Source of the DNA: Candidatus Scalindua sp.
GTDB taxonomy: Bacteria > Planctomycetota > Brocadiia > Brocadiales > Scalinduaceae
Reading direction: 5' to 3'
Assembly (NCBI GenBank): GCA_031316235.1
Contig: JALDRA010000001.1
Span: forward strand, 2,190,001 to 2,222,000
Length of the DNA stretch: 32,000 bases
Position numbers and translations under genes: made by a program. The stretch's first letter is position 1. The number at the start of each line of letters is the position of its first letter. A model generated the notes under the pieces. The model made no database searches and was not told the DNA's origin. It worked only from the letters and a program-made list of their open reading frames with translations. Shown one piece after another: positions 4,564-18,724 of this stretch.

Positions 4564-6126
4564 TTATACAGCATATCTTTGAACAAAAATCATTGATAAT
4601 AAAATTGCTCCAAAATAGATAACCAGGAGCAGATAAAATACTATCCACCGTCGTTCTGCTTTTAAAATATCATTCCCCTTCAGCGTGTACTTGTTTACCT
4701 GATCCCATCGGGGAGGTGTCGTCCACTGGCTTATGATTAAGGTGACAAGTACCGACACCGCCATTCCAAGCAGATTCCACCACATCCAGAACAACTCTTG
4801 GATCTTGAGCCACAGAAAGAGGTTGAAGGCCACACCGGCCACAACACCGATAAAGATACCTTTCGCTGTTGCCCGTTTTGTCAATACTCCCATCAGAAAT
4901 GAAGCCAGAATCGGGCCATAAAAGGCAGAACCGATCATATTGATACTCTCAAGAATCGTTTTGGAGATATTCCCGACGATAAATGCAAAACCTGAAATAA
5001 TAAGGCCCCACATGATTGTAGAGAGTTTACTCAGCAGCAGGATCCGCTTTTCTGAAAGACCTTGCTTCCTTTCAACAAAGTCACGCATCGTGCAAGCGGA
5101 GAGAGAGTTAAGGGCGGAATCCAGGCTGGACATCGCTGCAGCTAATATTGCAGCAAAGAGAATTGCTCGTACACCGGGAGGCACGTACATTAGTATAAAC
5201 TGCGGAACAAGGTAATCCAGATGATCGGCAGGTACAGCTTTCTGTAAGTCGACCGAATGGAGAAAGACCGCACCAACAGCTATCCCCAGAATAATGTAAC
5301 AAATTGTCAGTGGGAAGCGGGCAAAGCCGTTAAAGAAAAGTGACCGCTTGGTGTCATCCAGTGAAGGTGCTGAGAGTTCACGTTGTACCTGACTCTGGTC
5401 CGTACCATAATAGGATATATAGAGAAAAAAACCACCGACAAGAAATCCCCAAAATGTCGACATATCAATAGTATGGCAACGTTCTGGGGGAAATGACTCT
5501 AACATGATCCAAAAACCGCCCTGGTCAGCTGCCGCATACGCTACGCACAAAGTTATTCCACAAAGGAGAATAACCATCTGAACTACGTCAGAATACACTA
5601 CCGCTGCTATTCCACCAATAGTATCATAAATAATTGTTACGATACCGATAATCAAGATATTTAACCAGAGGGGAGTGTTCATGCAGACGGAAAGTACGAT
5701 GGCAATAGCATAAACACCTACACCGGTTGCCAGTGCCCGACTTATCAGGAAAACACTGCTCACCAGATAACGTACTGACAGCCCGAACCGTAATTCCAGA
5801 TATTCATATACGCTGACGAGTTCCAGTTTTCGGAAAAAGGGAATAAGACATACCATGACTACAATCATTGAAAGAGGTACGGCCATCTCATACTGCAGCA
5901 GGGTGAGGCCTCCAACCGGGGATAGTGCTACAAAGGCGGGGATAGAGATAAAGCTGACCGCTGAGGTTTGAGTTGCCATGGTAGACGTACCAACTGCCCA
6001 CCAGGGAAGGTTTCTCCCCCCAACGTAATAATCATCCTGATTTGATTGCTTCCGTCCGAGAAAGACGCTTAAACCGATCATACCTGTGAGATATACAGCA
6101 ATAATAGACCAGTCAAATGTATTCAT
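4564..6126 (-). CDS. sodium:solute symporter family (SSF/SLC5-type) transporter
   Basis: 520 aa, polytopic. The N-terminal signature DDYYVGGRNLPWWAVGTSTMATQTSAVSFISIPAF is typical of SSF transporters. Substrate not assignable. Confidence 0.85.
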   Translation of the reverse strand: MNTFDWSIIAVYLTGMIGLSVFLGRKQSNQDDYYVGGRNLPWWAVGTSTMATQTSAVSFISIPAFVALSPVGGLTLLQYEMAVPLSMIVVMVCLIPFFRKLELVSVYEYLELRFGLSVRYLVSSVFLISRALATGVGVYAIAIVLSVCMNTPLWLNILIIGIVTIIYDTIGGIAAVVYSDVVQMVILLCGITLCVAYAAADQGGFWIMLESFPPERCHTIDMSTFWGFLVGGFFLYISYYGTDQSQVQRELSAPSLDDTKRSLFFNGFARFPLTICYIILGIAVGAVFLHSVDLQKAVPADHLDYLVPQFILMYVPPGVRAILFAAILAAAMSSLDSALNSLSACTMRDFVERKQGLSEKRILLLSKLSTIMWGLIISGFAFIVGNISKTILESINMIGSAFYGPILASFLMGVLTKRATAKGIFIGVVAGVAFNLFLWLKIQELFWMWWNLLGMAVSVLVTLIISQWTTPPRWDQVNKYTLKGNDILKAERRWIVFYLLLVIYFGAILLSMIFVQRYAV

Positions 6127-10729: not shown

Positions 10730-11010
10730 CTTCCTCTTTCAGCTGCCCGCCCAAAAGTCGTAGTCAATCTGTCAGGGGCGGGAAAAAACTACTGGCCAGC
10801 ATGATAAATCTCCTGACTGCAACCACATGTTAATACGGTTGCTCAATGTATAAGGCCTGTGAAAATTATTAAAATTCCTCCCTGTTGCATTAACCTCATC
10901 CGGGCGGGTGGGATGAGGAATATTACGGGTAAATATTAAAGCAGATTGGCATACACTTGCAAACCATTAAATTTTATAAATTAAATGCTCAATAAACAGT
11001 CCGTCAACTA

Positions 11011-11039
11011 TTGACATTTCCTGTGGATTCGATTACCAT
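11011..11039 (+). promoter_or_regulatory. candidate sigma70-type promoter for the DUF2868/GTPase pair
   Basis: TTGACA (11011-11016), a 17-nt spacer, then TACCAT (11034-11039). It lies about 120 nt upstream of the TTG start at 11158, which is preceded by GGAGA (11146-11150). The -10 box is weak. Confidence 0.3.
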
Positions 11040-11157: not shown

Positions 11158-12711
11158 TTGAATGAGTCTGACGCTCGTAAGGTCCTATTTGTAAGGGCCA
11201 TAGAAAAGGGAGATCCTGCCGGATTGGTTTTGCCCAAGGCAGATAGATTAGTAGCAACTCGAAAAGCACGCCGCCCTGAAATAGTTGTTTGTGAAGAAAA
11301 AACAGAATCCCGCCCCCTCAACCAGGAAGAGGAATCATTCCTTGTCAGACGTGCTGAGTCACTCATACAAACCTTGAATCAGTGCTGTCCCGGTGCTCGA
11401 ATAGATCCCGGAGAATTGCAATGGAAAGGCTGGCTCACGGTTTTGTGCTTTATTCTGGCCTTTTTTTTGGGTTTCATTGCCAATGAGTTTGAATCCGGTA
11501 AACGATTAAATCTGTTGGCTTTTCCCGTCATGGGCATGCTCATATGGAACCTTGCTGTATACGGGTATATCGGATTTTCGCACATCCAGAGTGCTTTTAA
11601 GAAGGATTCCTGTGCGACATTCAACGGACCTATTATTCATGTTTTGTCAAGTGTGGCAACCCGGCATCTGAATAAAAACAGAGCTTCTGCTGATCGGTCA
11701 TCGATTCTCAGCAGGTGTTTCCAGAATTTTATCATTGAGTGGTCCCGACTCGCTTCCTCGATCTATAAAAGCCATGCTGCAAGGGTAATGCACGTGTGTG
11801 CCTTACTTTTTGCTGTTGGGATTATTGGAGGTATGTATATAAGGGGCGTAACGACGGAATATTATGCTGGTTGGGAGAGTACCTTTTTGGAGCCTGAAAC
11901 CGTACAAAAGCTCATGAATGTTGTTTTTATGCCAGCCGCTCTCCTTACCGGTCAGCAACTTCCAACAGTCGAACGAATAAAGGCTATCCAGTGGAGAGAC
12001 CGACGAGTCGGGGAAAACGCTGCAGAGTGGATACATCTCTTTTCAAAGACACTGTTTCTTTTCATTGTCATCCCGAGGGGATTTCTTTTTTTTATGGCAT
12101 TGAAACGGGAAAGGAAATTTCGAGCGCATTTTCCTATTCCGTCCGCGGCTGATTCCTATTTTAGAGAGCTGTTAACAGCCAGACCGGGACAGAGGGAACA
12201 CGTTCTCGTAATACCATACACAATTGAGCTTGCAGAGAAACAAATGGAGGTATTGTGCTCACTGTTTGATCAAAGCTTCGGTTGGAAGACGCAAGTCGAA
12301 TTCCACGATACCATACCCTATGGAGGTGAGAATAAATTGTTCAAAGAGCTTGTAGCTCGTACGATGACTTCTGCTGAATATTTGATAATTCTTTTCAATC
12401 TGTCATCTACTCCTGAATATGAGATTCATGGTGCTTTCATACATAATCTTAAGGAAGCCATTGCTATCGGCAATTCAACGAAAAAAATTCTCGTTACGAT
12501 TGATGAATCTCATTTTGTGTCCCGGTTCTCTCGTCTGTTGAATGGAGAAGAGAGGCTCGCATCACGCAAGAAATTATGGGAAAAAACAATTGCAGGAGAT
12601 ATCCTCAGACCCATCTTTGTCAATCTGCACAATCCTGATGTGGAAGAGTGGCAATTAAATATCGGTAAAGTTCTCACGTCTTTAAATGATCATGTCTGGA
12701 AATATGAATAA
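11158..12711 (+). CDS. DUF2868-like polytopic membrane protein with C-terminal alpha/beta domain
   Basis: 517 aa with a TTG start 7 nt after GGAGA. It has a soluble N-terminus of about 90 aa. Hydrophobic segments are WLTVLCFILAFFLGFIANEF, LLAFPVMGMLIWNLAVYGYIGF, VMHVCALLFAVGIIGGMYI and LFSKTLFLFIVIPRGFLFFMAL. A soluble tail of about 190 aa with an alternating beta/alpha pattern follows. Family assignment is from memory of the family and its usual pairing with DUF3482 GTPases, and needs HMM confirmation. Confidence 0.6.
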   Translation: MNESDARKVLFVRAIEKGDPAGLVLPKADRLVATRKARRPEIVVCEEKTESRPLNQEEESFLVRRAESLIQTLNQCCPGARIDPGELQWKGWLTVLCFILAFFLGFIANEFESGKRLNLLAFPVMGMLIWNLAVYGYIGFSHIQSAFKKDSCATFNGPIIHVLSSVATRHLNKNRASADRSSILSRCFQNFIIEWSRLASSIYKSHAARVMHVCALLFAVGIIGGMYIRGVTTEYYAGWESTFLEPETVQKLMNVVFMPAALLTGQQLPTVERIKAIQWRDRRVGENAAEWIHLFSKTLFLFIVIPRGFLFFMALKRERKFRAHFPIPSAADSYFRELLTARPGQREHVLVIPYTIELAEKQMEVLCSLFDQSFGWKTQVEFHDTIPYGGENKLFKELVARTMTSAEYLIILFNLSSTPEYEIHGAFIHNLKEAIAIGNSTKKILVTIDESHFVSRFSRLLNGEERLASRKKLWEKTIAGDILRPIFVNLHNPDVEEWQLNIGKVLTSLNDHVWKYE

Positions 12712-14182
12712 ATTGAATGAATCCATTACGTTGAGCCTTATCTCACATACCAATGTTGGAAAAACAACTCTCGCACGCACATTGCTGAGAAAGGAAATTG
12801 GGGTAGTACGGGACGGTGCTCATGTGACGGATTTGAATGAATTATACATTATGCTGGAGACTTCCGGAGGTCATGTTCTACGCCTTTGGGATACCCCGGG
12901 ATTTGGTGATTCGGCGAAGCTGCTTAATCATTTAAAGAGTATACCCAGGCCAACAGGGTGGTTTCAAGATGAAGTATGGGATCGTTTTCATGATCGCTCA
13001 CAGTGGTGCAATCAACAAGCTATCCGTAATGTACGGGAGGAAGCGGATGTCATACTCTACCTTGTCAATGCTGCCGAAGATCCTGCACAGGCGGGGTATG
13101 TAGATTGTGAAATGCAGATACTCGATTGGCTGAGTAAACCGGTTATTGTCCTCTTGAACCAGATGGGTCCGCCACGAGAAGCCGAGATTGAAGCTGGAGA
13201 AGAAAAGTCCTGGAAAGTGCACCTTCAGCGGTTTGAAGTTGTGAAGTATGTAATGGGTCTGGATGCCTTTGCACGGTGCTGGGTCCAGGAAGATCTGCTC
13301 ATGAGAACAATCGAAGGGGTGCTTCCATTTGCAAAGCGGAAACCATTTGCTGCTATCAGTAAAGAGTGGAGAAATAACAATCATTCGATTTTTGAGAGAG
13401 CAATGGATTCTCTTGCGAGGCAGATCTCCGCTGCATGTTGCGACCGGGAGACAGTTTCCAAAACATCGATGTTTCGGCTGGTTCAATTTAAATTGCCGGT
13501 TCCGGGAACATTTTCAGAAAATAGAAAAGAGAAAGAAGTCGCCATGAAAAGGTTGGCTGAAAGGCTGCAGAACAACGGTAGACAGTCACTCGCAGAATTG
13601 ATCCACCTGCATCAGCTCGAAGGGCGTGCCGTGACAGAGATCATCAAACGGATGTCCAGTGATTTTTCATCGAACAAACCCATAAACGAGGGTATCTCGG
13701 CGATAATTGGAGGTTTTGTAACCGGGGCAATAGGCGGAGTGAGTGCCGATTTTCTATCAGGAGGTTTGACGTTCGGCGGTGGCGCTGTTGTAGGTGGAGT
13801 GTTGGGGGCAGTCGGCGCTGGGGGACTGGTCAAAGGGTTTAATTTTATTCGTGGAGATACCAGTGCATTTATCCGCTGGTCATTACCATTGTTTCAGGAG
13901 TTGTTTCGAATTTCCCTGCTACGCTACCTTGCAGTTGCTCATTTTGGAAGAGGAAGAGGAGAGTATACAGAAAGTGAATATCCCGAATTCTGGAAAACTG
14001 CAGTCCGTCAAATTGTTGCAGAGTATCACAATGAAATCAAGGCCCTTTGGGATGCAGGTAAACGGGAGCTGAATTCTTCAAAACTAGATTTACGTACAAA
14101 AGAGATCGTCTCGAAAATTATAAGGGAGTTATTGGAAGGGTTTTATGCTGAAGCACATACTTCTGGATCAGTATTCCAGTAG
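12686..14182 (+). CDS. P-loop GTPase (MMR_HSR1-like) fused to a DUF3482-like region with glycine-rich membrane segment
   Basis: G1 is SHTNVGKTT and G3 is WDTPGFGDS. The G4 position reads LLNQMG. A helical middle part is followed by GISAIIGGFVTGAIGGVSADFLSGGLTFGGGAVVGGVLGAVGAGGLVKGF (13691-13840) and then LAVAHFGRGRGEY. Candidate starts ATG 12686, 12692 and 12704 all overlap the end of the upstream gene; 12704 gives ATGAATAA coupling. Confidence 0.75.
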   Translation: MIMSGNMNKLNESITLSLISHTNVGKTTLARTLLRKEIGVVRDGAHVTDLNELYIMLETSGGHVLRLWDTPGFGDSAKLLNHLKSIPRPTGWFQDEVWDRFHDRSQWCNQQAIRNVREEADVILYLVNAAEDPAQAGYVDCEMQILDWLSKPVIVLLNQMGPPREAEIEAGEEKSWKVHLQRFEVVKYVMGLDAFARCWVQEDLLMRTIEGVLPFAKRKPFAAISKEWRNNNHSIFERAMDSLARQISAACCDRETVSKTSMFRLVQFKLPVPGTFSENRKEKEVAMKRLAERLQNNGRQSLAELIHLHQLEGRAVTEIIKRMSSDFSSNKPINEGISAIIGGFVTGAIGGVSADFLSGGLTFGGGAVVGGVLGAVGAGGLVKGFNFIRGDTSAFIRWSLPLFQELFRISLLRYLAVAHFGRGRGEYTESEYPEFWKTAVRQIVAEYHNEIKALWDAGKRELNSSKLDLRTKEIVSKIIRELLEGFYAEAHTSGSVFQ

Positions 14183-14225
14183 TTTTGCTGATCAGTGCCT
14201 GCACGGAAACCCTGTAGTTTTGGAA

Positions 14226-15233: not shown

Positions 15234-16577
15234 TTACTCTTTTGTCAACTTCTTTTCCTCTTCCTGTATCCTCTTCTGCATCTCTCCTGCCCATTTTGTA
15301 ATACTTTTTGCATCTACAGGTTCTCCGCCCGTAAGAATCTTCAGCTGTCTTCCCTCAAGAACTTCTTGTTCTTCTCCTCCTCTTACAACGGTTGCACTGC
15401 CCCTCGTTGGTGTTATCTGAATCATAAATTCTGATACCTTGATGTCAATTTCTGCTTCATGTACACGTACACTGCTGGTATGGGCTGTTACGATAAATGG
15501 CTCTTTATCCCCAGAAATCTTTGCTAATATCTGCCCCTGTACAATGTCAAGCTTTCTTTTTTCTACCAGTTTGATATTAGTATCCACGTCCATAATGATA
15601 TACGTACCGTCCTTTAGAACAAAAGAGGCTTTACTTCCTTTTCCCGTCTGCAGGATTGCCCCTTTCTGGATTTTCGATTTATCGTTTACTACCCGCCATT
15701 TATTGTCAACTGAAGAACGCGTTTTTACGACACCTGTTGATTCTACAAGCTTTGCTTTGGCGGGCAGCGTAAAAAATAAAAAAATGATATAGACACACAG
15801 GGCACCAAAACCCAACAAAAGGCAGAATCTGCCAACAGCCTTTTTTGTCGGCCTTATCAGTATTATGCCTATTTCGTACAGGGCGATCATCGGCAATGCC
15901 GTCATAACCTGCGTAAAAGGGTCCGGCGGTGTAATGACAGCTGCGATTATAAAAATGATAAGGATAGCGTACTTTCTCCATTTCGCAAAATCTTCGCCCT
16001 TCAGTACTCCAATCTTTGCAATAAGCAACATGACAAGGGGAAGTTGAAATACGATGCCAAGGGCGATTGTCAACAGGAAGACAAGAGAAATATACTGACT
16101 CATCGTAATCACAGGTTCTATACTTGAGCCCAGAATTTTGATCAAAAACTGCAGTCCATATGGAATCAGTAAAAAGTATCCGAACAAGATACCTGATACG
16201 AATGCAATAAGGGAAAAAGGAACAAAAATTATTACGTACCTGCGTTCTTTCCTGTACAAACCGGCTTCGACAAATTTCCAGATTTGATATACAATAACAG
16301 GGTAAGCCATAAACAGCGATGCTATGAGGCAGAGCTTTATATAAGCATAAAAACCCTCCTGATAACTTAAAACCTGAAGTGATTGAGGCAGACCCAGGTT
16401 CTCCATCGCAAAATTGTGTGGTTTTTTGACGATATACAGGATCTTTGATTTAAATAACCAGCTGATAAAGAAGAAACCGGCAACAGCAATAATCGATTTT
16501 ATAATCCTTGATCGCAGCTCCTCAAGGTGCTCACTTATCGGTAACCTTTTCTCCTGGGTCTCTTGATTTTCTACCAT
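15234..16577 (-). CDS. tatC: TatC (twin-arginine translocase subunit) fused to an extra TM helix and a C-terminal FecR-like domain
   Basis: The N-terminal about 245 aa has the ISEHLEELRSRIIKS start and six hydrophobic segments typical of TatC. A seventh TM follows (FCLLLGFGALCVYIIFLFFTL). Next comes KIQKGAILQTGKGSKASFVLKDGTYIIMDVDTNIKLVEKRKLDIVQGQILAKISGDKEPFIVTAHTSSVRVHEAEIDIKV, which follows the FecR-domain pattern (G-x-l-x-T-g..s-x-a-x-l-x-l-x-dG-s...f-x-V-x-T). It is one uninterrupted 447-aa ORF. Confidence 0.8.
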   Translation of the reverse strand: MVENQETQEKRLPISEHLEELRSRIIKSIIAVAGFFFISWLFKSKILYIVKKPHNFAMENLGLPQSLQVLSYQEGFYAYIKLCLIASLFMAYPVIVYQIWKFVEAGLYRKERRYVIIFVPFSLIAFVSGILFGYFLLIPYGLQFLIKILGSSIEPVITMSQYISLVFLLTIALGIVFQLPLVMLLIAKIGVLKGEDFAKWRKYAILIIFIIAAVITPPDPFTQVMTALPMIALYEIGIILIRPTKKAVGRFCLLLGFGALCVYIIFLFFTLPAKAKLVESTGVVKTRSSVDNKWRVVNDKSKIQKGAILQTGKGSKASFVLKDGTYIIMDVDTNIKLVEKRKLDIVQGQILAKISGDKEPFIVTAHTSSVRVHEAEIDIKVSEFMIQITPTRGSATVVRGGEEQEVLEGRQLKILTGGEPVDAKSITKWAGEMQKRIQEEEKKLTKE

Positions 16578-16883: not shown

Positions 16884-17357
16884 ATGGTTAGATCATTTGC
16901 AGGCAGCCTTATTGGTACTGGTAAGACTTTTGGTATTATTGTTAGCAGATTTAACAGTTTCATTACAAAACAGTTGCTGGAGGGGGCGCAGGACTGTCTG
17001 ATAAGACACGGAACCGATGAAAAGGATATTGATGTTTTCTGGGTTCCAGGGTCTTATGAAATACCGATTACGGCCATGAAGCTGACCAAAAATGGCAAAT
17101 ACGATGGCGTCATCTGTCTGGGTGCAGTAATACGCGGAGAAACACCACATTTTGATTATGTTTCCAGTGAATCTGCCAAGGGAATTACCGAGGTTGGTCT
17201 TGCAACCGGTGTTCCCACAACATATGGAATCATCACAACCGATACCCTGGAACAAGCCATAGATAGAGCAGGTACCAGAAGCGGCAATAAGGGTGCAGAA
17301 GCCGCATTGACAACGCTGGAAATGGTAAATTTATTTGAAACGATAAAGAATGGGTAA
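16884..17357 (+). CDS. ribH: 6,7-dimethyl-8-ribityllumazine synthase
   Basis: 157 aa. Contains FGIIVSRFNSFITKQLLEGAQDCLIRHG, WVPGSYEIP and GAVIRGETPHFDYV. Confidence 0.92.
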   Translation: MVRSFAGSLIGTGKTFGIIVSRFNSFITKQLLEGAQDCLIRHGTDEKDIDVFWVPGSYEIPITAMKLTKNGKYDGVICLGAVIRGETPHFDYVSSESAKGITEVGLATGVPTTYGIITTDTLEQAIDRAGTRSGNKGAEAALTTLEMVNLFETIKNG

Positions 17358-17401: not shown

Positions 17402-18724
17402 TTGCGAAAAAGAACAGTCTCTCGTGAAATAGCGTTACAGGCGCTTTACCAGCTGGAGATCCGCGGTGATGAAATCATGAGCGAGATAGACTCCTTCTGC
17501 AGGAACCAGAGTAGCGAAGAAGAGATATGGAAATTTGCCTTGATGCTCGTTAAGGGGTGTTTTAAGAACATTGAAGAAATAGACAGGAAGATTGTTTCCG
17601 TGTCAGAAAATTGGAGTATGCACAGGATGCCCGTAGTAGATAAAAACATATTACGCTTAGCATGTTATGAGCTTTTCTTTCTGGAAGATATTCCTCCCAA
17701 GGTGACCATTAACGAAGCAATCGATCTTGCAAAGAAATTCAGCACGGAGAAATCAGGATTATTTGTAAATGGTGTATTGGATAAGGTATATTCGGCCTAT
17801 CTCAGCGAGAATAAAAACGATAGCCAACAGGGTACACCGGATTTGTGTGGACACCGTAATGGAGAGGCAGCCAAACGTATATATACAGGTACCGGTGCAG
17901 ACCTTCATATCCATACAGAGTTCTCTGACGGAACTTTTACCCCGGAACAGGTAGTTGAAGAAGCAGTAAAACAAGGCCTTCGAACTATTGCCGTCACAGA
18001 CCATGATAACATTGATGCGCTGGAGGCAACCCGGGAGATCTGTGATCAAAAAGGGATACAGTTCATACCTGCAGTTGAGCTCTCTTCTTTTTATGATCCG
18101 GTGGATATTCATATCTTGGGCTATTACATAGACATAAAGAGTATCGCGCTGAGAGAAAAATTAGCAGAACTGAGGCATGAAAGGATCGAACGAATAAAGA
18201 AAATCTCGGCAAAACTGCACAAGTTGAAAATTGATATTGACCCACAGGAAGTTTTAGATGTTGCAGGAAAAGGGGTGGCCGGCAGGGTACATGTAGCGGA
18301 TGTTTTAGTTCGAAAAGGGTATTGCAGTACCATGCAGGAATGCTTTAATTCCTACCTGGCAGATTATGGGCCGGCCCACGTGCCTAAAGTCTCATTATCG
18401 CTGGAAGGTGCTATTGAGCTCGTAATATCTGCAGGCGGTGTCCCCGTTTTTTCACACCCGGGTCTTACGAAAAGAGATGATTTGATTCCAAAAATGATAG
18501 GATACGGTTTGCAGGGTATCGAGGCCTTTTACCCTTCTCATCATCCGGATGTTGTAAAGCGATATATCCGGTTGGCTCAGAAACATGATCTTGTAATTAC
18601 GGGTGGTTCTGACTGCCATGGTGATCGAAAGCCTGCTACCACGCTTGGTTGTATTACGATAGAAGATTGTCTCGTTGAAAAGATTGCAGAAAGATGCAAT
18701 AGCATGGTTGGCCTCTTCAGTTAG
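17402..18724 (+). CDS. nusB: NusB antitermination factor fused to a PHP-domain phosphoesterase (TrpH/YciV-like)
   Basis: TTG start at 17402 after GGAG (17390-17393). Residues 1-135 are SREIALQALYQLEIRGD ... VDKNILRLACYELFFLEDIPPKVTINEAIDLAKKFS ... FVNGVLDKV (NusB). After a linker of about 30 aa comes ADLHIHTEFSDGTFTPEQVVEEAVKQGLRTIAVTDHDN ... GGSDCHG (PHP, COG0613-type). It is a single 440-aa ORF, 44 nt after ribH. Confidence 0.85.
   Translation: MRKRTVSREIALQALYQLEIRGDEIMSEIDSFCRNQSSEEEIWKFALMLVKGCFKNIEEIDRKIVSVSENWSMHRMPVVDKNILRLACYELFFLEDIPPKVTINEAIDLAKKFSTEKSGLFVNGVLDKVYSAYLSENKNDSQQGTPDLCGHRNGEAAKRIYTGTGADLHIHTEFSDGTFTPEQVVEEAVKQGLRTIAVTDHDNIDALEATREICDQKGIQFIPAVELSSFYDPVDIHILGYYIDIKSIALREKLAELRHERIERIKKISAKLHKLKIDIDPQEVLDVAGKGVAGRVHVADVLVRKGYCSTMQECFNSYLADYGPAHVPKVSLSLEGAIELVISAGGVPVFSHPGLTKRDDLIPKMIGYGLQGIEAFYPSHHPDVVKRYIRLAQKHDLVITGGSDCHGDRKPATTLGCITIEDCLVEKIAERCNSMVGLFS

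Follow-up and report, generated by a model that had tools for sequence, protein, structure and literature searches.

A widespread DUF2868–DUF3482 gene pair of Candidatus Scalindua likely encodes the two subunits of a membrane NTPase with an Era-like G domain

Introduction

This article concerns a pair of overlapping genes in Candidatus Scalindua sp. (NCBI GenBank assembly GCA_031316235.1, contig JALDRA010000001.1), here called ORF1 and ORF2 (for open reading frame). They lie on the forward strand within a stretch of 32,000 nucleotides (nt; positions 2,190,001 to 2,222,000 of the contig), which we refer to as the window and whose own numbering is used throughout. ORF1 encodes a membrane protein of the DUF2868 family, and ORF2 a P-loop GTPase with a DUF3482 domain. 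An earlier reading of the window, made without database searches (the original prediction), had put the pair forward as a module of dynamin-like architecture, and bacterial dynamin-like proteins are among several described systems with which it has to be compared.

In atlastin, the N-terminal G domain leads into a helical bundle and a pair of closely spaced hydrophobic helices, and the chain ends in a cytoplasmic tail. A two-gene logic analogous to that of the pair is found in YcjX–YcjF of Escherichia coli, where a soluble or peripheral, stress-induced P-loop NTPase is encoded beside a small polytopic DUF697 membrane protein; this system is reportedly linked to the Psp and heat-shock responses. 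Members of the dynamin family possess an extended GTPase domain, a neck or bundle signalling element (BSE) assembled from N- and C-terminal helices, and a trunk or stalk with a paddle at its tip (PMC4159319); the genes of the bacterial dynamin-like proteins are commonly paired in operons (PMC4159319, PMC6104087). The TEES-type cation-dependent HAS-GTPases (TrmE, Era, EngA and FeoB) carry a hydrophobic residue instead of the catalytic Gln, a K+-binding Asn in G1 and a second Asn, at the position Lys+5, that stabilizes the K-loop (PMC3466195). In one of these, FeoB, the coupling of a G domain of the K+ type to a transporter in the membrane has been published (PMC3153494; PMC3466195).

Results and Discussion

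Two catalogued families in an overlapping gene pair

ORF1 and ORF2 very probably encode the two subunits of a single inner-membrane NTPase complex. Both proteins belong to families that are already catalogued in Pfam and annotated in NCBI records, and they bear no close resemblance to any characterized system. ORF1 matches DUF2868 (PF11067) with 50.2 bits (gathering cut-off 26.8) over residues 201–328, a stretch that comprises the third transmembrane (TM) helix, the following loop and TM4, and is the only part covered by the profile. ORF2 matches MMR_HSR1 (PF01926; 40.7 bits, cut-off 21.9) and then, in that order, DUF3482 (PF11981; 51.6 bits, cut-off 29.2). All three assignments had been anticipated in the original prediction, and all three exceed the curated cut-offs. 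The DUF2868 profile is also matched by 38 of 39 ORF1 homologues, and MMR_HSR1 and DUF3482 are both matched in every one of 52 ORF2 homologues.

The homologues of ORF2 form more than 7,000 clusters at 90% identity; its relatives in the Brocadiales are 66–87% identical, and the next tier, largely Burkholderiales, ~50%. ORF1 diverges faster, with ~33% identity outside the Brocadiales. A profile search of 1.84 billion representatives places 1,897 clusters at 50% identity in the DUF2868 family (E <= 1e-10), the top 150 of which are all ~410–540 residues long and of identical layout. The pair is present in anammox Planctomycetota, Proteobacteria (including Pseudomonas aeruginosa), Verrucomicrobiota and Methylomirabilota; for P. 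aeruginosa, the two proteins have consecutive IMG gene IDs (PMC12864544). In keeping with the earlier statement that no function has been assigned to either family, we found no functional study of DUF2868 or DUF3482 in the literature searched, where the DUF names occur only as list entries.

The coordinates of the two genes, their common strand and an overlap of between 8 and 26 nt, as originally proposed, were confirmed. The longest frame of ORF2 (12686..14182) would give a protein of 498 residues, and three in-frame ATG codons (12686, 12692 and 12704) precede the TAA of ORF1 at 12709–12711, resulting in overlaps of 26, 20 or 8 nt, respectively. Since a deposited protein that is 100% identical to ORF2 (P0001) is 492 residues long, we take 12704 as the start and the 8-nt overlap, ATGAATAA, as the true one; the junction reads ...AATGATCATGTCTGGAAATATGAATAA... 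In ORF1, no in-frame start codon precedes the TTG, and the next ATG is more than 120 codons further downstream; the TTG start is supported by the N-terminus, MNE..AR..L.VRA.E, which is kept in all 39 aligned homologues. The gene order before the pair is divergent (murD and a CCA-adding enzyme) and that after it convergent (a cupin, a glyoxalase-fold protein and a TatC fusion), so that the operon consists of these two genes. Given the start/stop overlap, translation of ORF2 is probably coupled to that of ORF1. The features of the pair are collected in Table 1.

Table 1. Features of the ORF1–ORF2 pair and its immediate flanks (window coordinates; aa, amino acids; TM, transmembrane helix)
Feature	Coordinates	Strand	Remarks
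Promoter-like site TTGACA-17-TACCAT	11011..11039	+	10/12 matches; ~120 nt upstream of ORF1; weak evidence
ORF1, DUF2868 membrane partner, 517 aa, start codon TTG	11158..12711	+	PF11067 50.2 bits; AF2 pLDDT 80.6
ORF1 N-terminal helical domain, aa 1-90	11158..11427	+	probably cytoplasmic; E16, R65 >=95% conserved
ORF1 TM1 (aa 91-111), short conserved outer loop (112-121, ..SGxRLNLLAFP), TM2 (122-147)	11428..11598	+	W130, N131, Y135 >=95% conserved
ORF1 TM3 (aa 205-232; H212, G221, Y227), loop 233-288, TM4 (289-323; P306, R307)	11770..12126	+	
ORF1 C-terminal alpha/beta domain, aa 346-516	12193..12705	+	TPE.E, D449, R466, R470, W474 invariant; no P-loop
Start/stop overlap	12704..12711	+	ORF2 start within ORF1 end
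ORF2, membrane-anchored GTPase + DUF3482, 492 aa	12704..14182	+	alternative in-frame ATGs 12686, 12692
ORF2 G domain, aa 1-190	12704..13273	+	canonical six-strand Ras-like order; beta1 aa 7-14
G1/P-loop S14-H-T-N17-V-G19-K20-T21	12743..12766	+	aligned to Era
G2 switch I threonine T42	12827..12829	+	invariant HVT
G3 D63-T-P-G66 then F67	12890..12901	+	F67 >=90% conserved, other G1-G4 motif residues invariant
Atypical G4 N152-Q-M-G155	13157..13168	+	aligned to NKID of Era; N, Q, G invariant 52/52
ORF2 helical region, aa 191-320	13274..13663	+	two long helices 209-246, 269-302; further helix 308-320
ORF2 Gly-rich hydrophobic segment, putative hairpin, aa 321-377	13664..13834	+	17 Gly in 57 residues
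ORF2 post-hairpin domain	13835..14179	+	beta-hairpin 379-392, helix 394-412, HFGRGRG loop, three C-terminal helices
Weak terminator-like hairpin	14163..14189	+	T-rich tail; spans ORF2 stop codon

Conserved adjacency and natural fusions of the two genes

The pairing of the two genes is real and widespread. One genome per GTDB species was scanned with the GTPase, yielding at least 273 confirmed relatives, the best 80 loci of which were examined; these derive from Burkholderiales, other Betaproteobacteria, Sphingomonadales, Gammaproteobacteria, Verrucomicrobiota, one Methylomirabilota genome and one record labelled Agromyces. When six-frame ORFs of the 80 loci were searched with an ORF1 alignment profile, 74 of the 78 loci that could be assessed (two lack upstream DNA), across four phyla, proved to have a DUF2868 gene as the immediate upstream neighbour of the GTPase gene and in the same orientation. 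The adjacency in other phyla stated in the original prediction is thereby borne out. Moreover, 39 of the 70 junctions with a complete DUF2868 3′ end are 4-nt overlaps of the type ATGA, GTGA or TTGA; the remainder comprise one 8-nt overlap, one 1-nt overlap and gaps that are mostly short (two thirds below 80 nt), the choice of start codon being uncertain at some of these.

All-against-all clustering of the flanking ORFs of the 80 loci disclosed no recurrent third gene, there being no real family in more than seven loci (the large clusters are alternative-frame ORFs that lie over the pair itself), and four annotated neighbourhoods, from Glaciimonas, a gammaproteobacterial metagenome-assembled genome (MAG), a Nevskiales MAG and Scalindua japonica, have only the pair in common. 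The two proteins also diverge in step: across 64 pairs, the pairwise identities of DUF2868 and GTPase correlate with r = 0.93 (Mantel 0/500), around mean values of 36 and 50%, respectively.

Some individual loci are worth recording. Four loci of Verrucomicrobia (L031, L075, L078 and L079) have a GTPase/DUF3482 gene and no DUF2868 relative within the locus, even at E <= 10; a CT398-like coiled-coil/zinc-ribbon ORF upstream in L078 was considered as a substitute partner and set aside, as it is not common to the other three. In a Lautropia MAG (L028), an Abi_2 (Abi-like) gene (4739-5860; 187.5 bits) is inserted between the DUF2868 and GTPase genes, and this is the sole locus with a large gap (1.4 kb) between them. 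The record labelled Agromyces sp. (Actinomycetota; L040) is the sole monoderm record with the pair among the best 80 loci; it is most closely related to betaproteobacterial MAGs (with identities of 64% in the GTPase and 54% in DUF2868), which suggests horizontal transfer or contamination.

Further evidence that the two proteins belong together comes from natural fusions. In a gammaproteobacterial MAG (L045, 4537-7407), a single ORF comprises the N-domain of DUF2868 with its four TM helices (profile positions 1-331) and a complete GTPase/DUF3482 protein: ~30 residues past TM4, the chain continues into LSLISHTNAGKTTLARTLL. A search with this fusion returned 15 more fusion clusters (P0161-P0175) of 737-922 residues, most of them 808-842, with 49-80% identity. 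They originate from independent metagenomes (JGI, ENA, Logan and NCBI) and from Steroidobacteraceae and Nevskiales, and 14 of the 15 have precomputed matches to PF11067, PF01926 and PF11981 together, P0175 being without a PF11067 call. In two fusions confirmed above the Pfam cut-offs, the DUF2868 match extends only over profile positions 10-158 of 315, and MMR_HSR1 begins 20-30 residues later. The C-terminal α/β domain of DUF2868 is thus absent from the natural fusions, where a real G domain sits exactly in the place that it would occupy. In the manner of Rosetta-stone evidence, the fusions argue that ORF1 and ORF2 act in one complex, and they strengthen the case, already made by adjacency, for the widespread two-part system envisaged at the outset. 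A further candidate, P0278 (1326 residues), was rejected as a second fusion type: it consists of complete DUF2868 and GTPase proteins connected by a low-complexity linker rich in Arg and Pro, preceded by a long stretch of spurious N-terminal sequence, and is probably a frameshift or read-through artefact.

ORF1, a four-helix membrane protein

Hydropathy analysis of ORF1 delineates four hydrophobic windows (residues 86-114, 116-138, 205-233 and 292-317), and its AlphaFold2 (AF2) model (pLDDT 80.6, pTM 0.72) consists of an N-terminal helical domain, four long helices and a C-terminal α/β domain, much as had been anticipated for a four-TM protein with soluble N- and C-terminal domains. The second loop (residues 148-204) is charge-biased, with nine Lys or Arg against three Asp or Glu residues, and a KRERKFR sequence follows TM4; additionally, the C-terminal side of TM4 should be cytoplasmic, because the GTPase follows TM4 directly in the fusions. 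On the strength of this charge bias and of the position of the GTPase, both termini and loop 2 of ORF1 would be cytoplasmic, with loop 233-288 on the non-cytoplasmic side.

Conservation is highest in and around the membrane: the scores are 0.69 for loop 1, 0.61 for both TM3 and loop 233-288, and 0.46-0.48 for the soluble domains. Loop 233-288 carries the conserved sequences AGWESTFL and GENAAxWIHL. Among 182 diverse DUF2868 proteins, the residues conserved at a level of at least 95% are E16, R65, G105, P123, W130, N131, Y135, W195, H212, A215, G221 and Y227; A237, W239, S241, T242, F243, P269, A288, W291, H293, L294, P306 and R307; and L310, G389, T418, P419, E420, E422, D449, R466, R470 and W474. 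Ten of these, namely, W130, N131, Y135, H212, Y227, W239, S241, T242, W291 and H293, are polar or aromatic and lie in or beside TM helices. This pattern would be more in line with a functional site in the membrane than with simple anchoring. A bis-His haem site was considered, on account of a weak match to Ni_hydr_CYTB (E 0.03) and of the invariance of H212 and H293, and rejected on the putative topology: TM3 would hold H212 close to its cytoplasmic end, and TM4 would hold H293 at its outer end. Among solved structures, none is related to ORF1 by sequence.

The C-terminal domain of ORF1 has a Ras-like order of secondary-structure elements in the AF2 model. Foldseek returns local matches to the G domains of Rag, IFT27 and Nog1 (E 0.002-0.18; probability >=0.96 for the Nog1 and Rag chains and 0.66 for IFT27), and hhalign sets its β4 and β5 in register with those of a real G domain, albeit at a non-significant E of 0.24; in the fusions, moreover, a real G domain takes its place. 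Each of these hints is weak individually, there is no match to a PDB profile, and none of the 182 family members has a Walker A motif; we therefore entertain a degenerate G domain at this position only tentatively.

ORF2, an Era-like G domain with an altered G4 motif

Residues of ORF2 are numbered from the ATG at 12704. Its AF2 model (pLDDT 74.8, pTM 0.76) begins with a G domain of the order β1-α1-β2-β3-α2-β4-α3-β5-α4-β6-α5, contained within residues 7-206 (~190-205 residues). All of the elements noted in the original prediction, that is, the P-loop, DTPGFGD, the helices, the Gly-rich segment and HFGRGRG, are present, the Gly-rich segment measuring 57 residues.

This G domain is Era/TrmE-like with an altered G4. 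The first Gly of the GxxNxGK[ST] motif is a Ser in ORF2; N17, aligned with the Asn of Era, is invariant and lies where MnmE and FeoB have the Asn that contacts K+ (as defined in PMC3466195). As the hydrophobic F67 replaces the catalytic Gln of Ras after DxxG, ORF2 is of the HAS-GTPase type. Of the features by which the TEES-type enzymes are recognized, it has the hydrophobic residue and the G1 Asn, and lacks the Lys+5 Asn and NKxD: K20+5 is R25, invariant in 52 of 52 members, where K+-dependent GTPases have their second signature Asn, and the place of NKxD is taken by NQxG.

Sequence searches of the PDB, by profile and by single sequence, recover only the G domains of Der, Era, RbgA, GIMAP7 and septins, the best profile matches being Der (3.7e-5) and Era (1.5e-4). 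Foldseek against the PDB likewise finds Era (1e-5), Nog1, Der, EngB, Toc34, Irga6, septins and GIMAP7, each aligning with essentially the G domain only. ORF2 could on these grounds be a GTPase of the Era/Der kind that is tethered to the membrane and serves in assembly or quality control, acting on the ribosome, the translocon or another client, with ORF1 as a mere receptor: its closest G-domain relatives (Era, Der, EngB and Nog1) are ribosome-assembly GTPases, Pfam describes MMR_HSR1 as ‘50S ribosome-binding GTPase’, and the G1 Asn, the G2 Thr and DTPG plus hydrophobic residue all align with those of Era, Der (EngA), EngB and MnmE. We regard this as improbable. The likeness is limited to the generic G domain; ORF2 is membrane-anchored, has neither a KH nor another RNA-binding domain, and carries NQxG for NKxD; and in NCBIfam it matches only Der, Era, MnmE, HydF and HflX, over the first ~80 residues and far below the equivalog cut-offs (for Der, 27 against 306.7 bits). 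Moreover, the conserved membrane-embedded and putatively outward-facing residues of both subunits would be left unexplained.

Toc34/Toc159, GIMAP/AIG1, Irga6 and septin-like proteins share with ORF2 a small TRAFAC G domain, C-terminal helices and a membrane anchor (Foldseek E 2e-4 to 1e-3). The match is, however, one of G domains only (TMq 0.20-0.24), the Pfam families AIG1, IIGP and Septin are sub-threshold, and those proteins, with one tail anchor each, lack a 4-TM partner.

Beyond the G domain and the helical region, the Gly-rich segment contains two moderately hydrophobic windows and the invariant residues G336, G341, G345, D349, G354, G358, G364 and G368; it would form a glycine-zipper-like hairpin of two helices, flanked on either side by cytoplasmic sequence. 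In the domain that follows, H413-F-G-R-G-R-G419 is encoded at nt 13940-13960, with H413, G415, R416, G417, R418 and G419 invariant in 52 of 52 members. The hairpin (0.71) and the post-hairpin domain (0.74) are as well conserved as the G domain (0.72).

The dynamin question

ORF2 does have a hydrophobic segment flanked by helices, and the two proteins might accordingly constitute a membrane remodeller in the style of dynamin, mitofusin or atlastin, in which nucleotide-dependent dimerization of G domains, located on one membrane or on two opposing ones, and a wedge-like hairpin would tether, bend, fuse or repair the inner membrane, with ORF1 as anchor or regulator. The order of elements is suggestive: a G domain, ~130 residues of helices (two of them of 34-38 residues), a ~50-residue hydrophobic hairpin and further helices. 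Bacterial dynamin-like proteins (BDLP1, LeoA/LeoBC, DynA, IniA and Campylobacter DLP1/2) similarly combine a TRAFAC G domain, helices and a hydrophobic membrane-inserting segment, and their frequent pairing in operons also counts in favour. There is, in addition, a weak likeness in G-domain sequence, PADLOC LeoBC matching that of ORF2 with 40.4 bits (E 5e-11), and Dynamin_N gives sub-threshold matches in 24 of 52 members; Irga6, GIMAP7, septin and Toc34 are among the Foldseek matches.

On closer comparison, membership of the dynamin family was rejected on four grounds: the Pfam score, the size of the G domain, the missing N-terminal helices and the Foldseek results. Dynamin_N scores 12.2 bits against ORF2, its cut-off being 27, and across the 52 members its sub-threshold matches (best E 3e-4) take their place among those of GTP_EFTU (40 members), Septin (37), Roc (13) and FeoB_N (7). 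No extended G domain was found in the AF2 secondary structure, the domain being of canonical Ras-like size, and none of the three candidate starts provides an N-terminal helix for a neck or BSE, β1 beginning at residue 7. The LeoBC match spans only profile positions 85-190 of 601. With the whole ORF2 model, the sole dynamin-like Foldseek match is to 5oxf, a bacterial dynamin pair, at rank 48 (probability 0.82, TMq 0.20, root-mean-square deviation 52 Å), and no trunk or stalk match emerged from this whole-model comparison. Additionally, the post-hairpin helices are at most 22 residues long and would be too short to pair along the 34-38-residue helices in the manner of a dynamin trunk, and a polytopic partner that is most conserved where it would face away from the cytoplasm is not needed by a cytoplasmic remodeller. 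That partner is an unrelated 4-TM protein, not a second dynamin, and G4 is NQxG. The dynamin-like classification of the original prediction is therefore not supported, and the likeness is limited to the linear order of G domain, helices, hydrophobic insert and helices. A role in remodelling, whether by this or by an atlastin-like route, seems to us unlikely.

The same linear order is equally that of atlastin and of tail- or hairpin-anchored TRAFAC GTPases. ORF2 differs from atlastin, Sey1 and mitofusin in that the G domain of atlastin is of the GBP/dynamin type and its own of the Era type; none of the three is among the first 50 structures that Foldseek retrieves from the PDB, none comes up when the PDB is searched by profile at E <= 1, and ORF2 has an obligatory-looking polytopic partner with a conserved loop that probably faces outwards. 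The pair differs from YcjX–YcjF, too, in that it has no DUF463 or DUF697 match at E <= 1, and the NTPase itself would carry the membrane hairpin.

The earlier suggestion of a link to phage tolerance fares no better. A role of the pair in anti-phage defence or abortive infection could be argued from the G-domain matches to PADLOC LeoBC and LeoA, from the Abi_2 gene between the pair genes of one Lautropia genome and from the published phage-defence role of DynA (PMC12998192). The PADLOC-DB 2.0 match of ORF2 is nonetheless confined to the G domain, and ORF1 has none. Among 50,697 phage and 72,556 plasmid records there are no full-length relatives, only matches at the level of the G domain; on this finding and the partial nature of the LeoBC match, an origin in mobile elements or defence was rejected. 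The neighbourhoods are housekeeping or metabolic and not defence islands, and the strong co-divergence and slow evolution of the GTPase (50% identity between Planctomycetota and Burkholderiales) are unlike those of fast-turnover defence genes. We consider a role in defence highly improbable.

A nucleotide-driven membrane switch

How might the complex work? We suggest that it is a nucleotide-driven switch in the inner membrane, with the products of the two overlapping genes as its subunits. In ORF2, the helical bundle would join the cytoplasmic G domain to the Gly-zipper-like hairpin, after which the HFGRGRG domain would lie close to the membrane; the C-terminal α/β domain of ORF1 would dock onto the G domain, and the two subunits would be in physical contact. 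Nucleotide binding and hydrolysis, probably with dimerization of the G domain as in other GTPases of the class, would be transmitted to the membrane by moving the helical bundle and hairpin against the TM bundle of ORF1, and the resulting six-helix membrane assembly would change state, presumably for gating, transport or signalling across the inner membrane. The logic would be FeoB-like, and not that of polymer-based, dynamin-like remodelling.

A switch or gate of this kind is favoured over a remodeller for three reasons: the conserved residues cluster in the membrane helices, in the Gly hairpin, in the HFGRGRG region and in the outward-facing loop; the G domain is of the same class as the one by which FeoB controls a transporter; and no self-assembling stalk was detected. 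We put its chances at somewhat below even, and those of the remodeller lower still. With FeoB, the pair shares an N-terminal Era/TrmE-class, HAS-type G domain with a P-loop Asn, a helical domain and membrane helices, and the natural DUF2868–GTPase fusions even constitute one polytopic protein with a cytoplasmic G domain. It is not a FeoB, however: FeoB_N is matched below threshold only (7 of 52 members, best E 1.3e-3) and FeoB_C not at all, the 2 + 4 TM helices are distributed over two chains, R25 stands in for the second Asn, and G4 is without its Asp. A more elaborate version would have the P-loop-less pseudo-G domain of ORF1 pair with the G domain of ORF2, such that an Era-type NTPase with NQxG and a Gly-zipper hairpin would gate or drive a six-helix assembly with an outward-facing active loop, a design distinct from both the dynamins and FeoB; we hold this to be doubtful.

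Several observations weigh against the proposal of a two-subunit GTPase switch. The literature searched contains no experimental datum on any member of either family, and in the four loci of Verrucomicrobia the GTPase occurs without an adjacent DUF2868 gene. Compared with known folds, the ORF1 model retrieves nothing at E <= 1e-3, and no transporter or channel fold is matched. Since the fusions lack it, the C-terminal domain of ORF1 appears to be dispensable once the chains are tethered; indeed, it is for this reason that a docking role is assigned to it. The very name GTPase is an assumption, as the guanine-specifying Asp of NKxD is missing family-wide. The Gly-rich hairpin is modelled at a pLDDT of only 21-43, so that its spanning of the bilayer is uncertain, and six TM helices per heterodimer are few for a transporter. 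Lastly, Gly/Ala-rich hydrophobic segments also suit membrane-perturbing roles, and that of ORF2 presumably resembles membrane-perturbing peptides, which favours the remodelling alternative.

Genomic surroundings

The 428-nt intergenic region upstream of ORF1, which separates it from the divergent murD, gives no match to an Rfam family; the single Rfam match, at E 0.77, was dismissed as evidence of a riboswitch or leader. Sites resembling the promoter-like sequence of Table 1 are no more frequent in the region than in shuffled sequence. The same intergenic region contains an inverted repeat with perfectly matching 8-bp arms, CCTCATCC / GGATGAGG, and a loop of 9 nt (10894-10918), which has neither a T-run nor an Rfam match. 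Downstream, the convergent TatC gene (15234-16577, reverse strand) encodes TatC (PF00902, residues 16-229) with a C-terminal FecR domain (PF04773, residues 309-393), an unusual fusion for a Tat core subunit. Further on, directly after the lumazine synthase gene ribH (16884-17357), a forward-strand gene (17402-18724) encodes NusB (residues 7-130) fused to a PHP phosphoesterase domain (residues 167-230).

Implications

Overall, the pair represents a real and widespread module, very probably a two-subunit membrane NTPase, notable for its invariant atypical G4 and its natural fusions. It also provides a corrected starting point for work on these families: the two proteins are co-inherited, probably translationally coupled and naturally fused, and the GTPase is Era-like and not dynamin-like. 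In practical terms, both proteins would best be treated as one complex, with a membrane or periplasm-directed function in mind as opposed to dynamin-type polymerization. Should a GTPase-gated membrane device prove to be the correct description, it would be only the second such bacterial design after FeoB.

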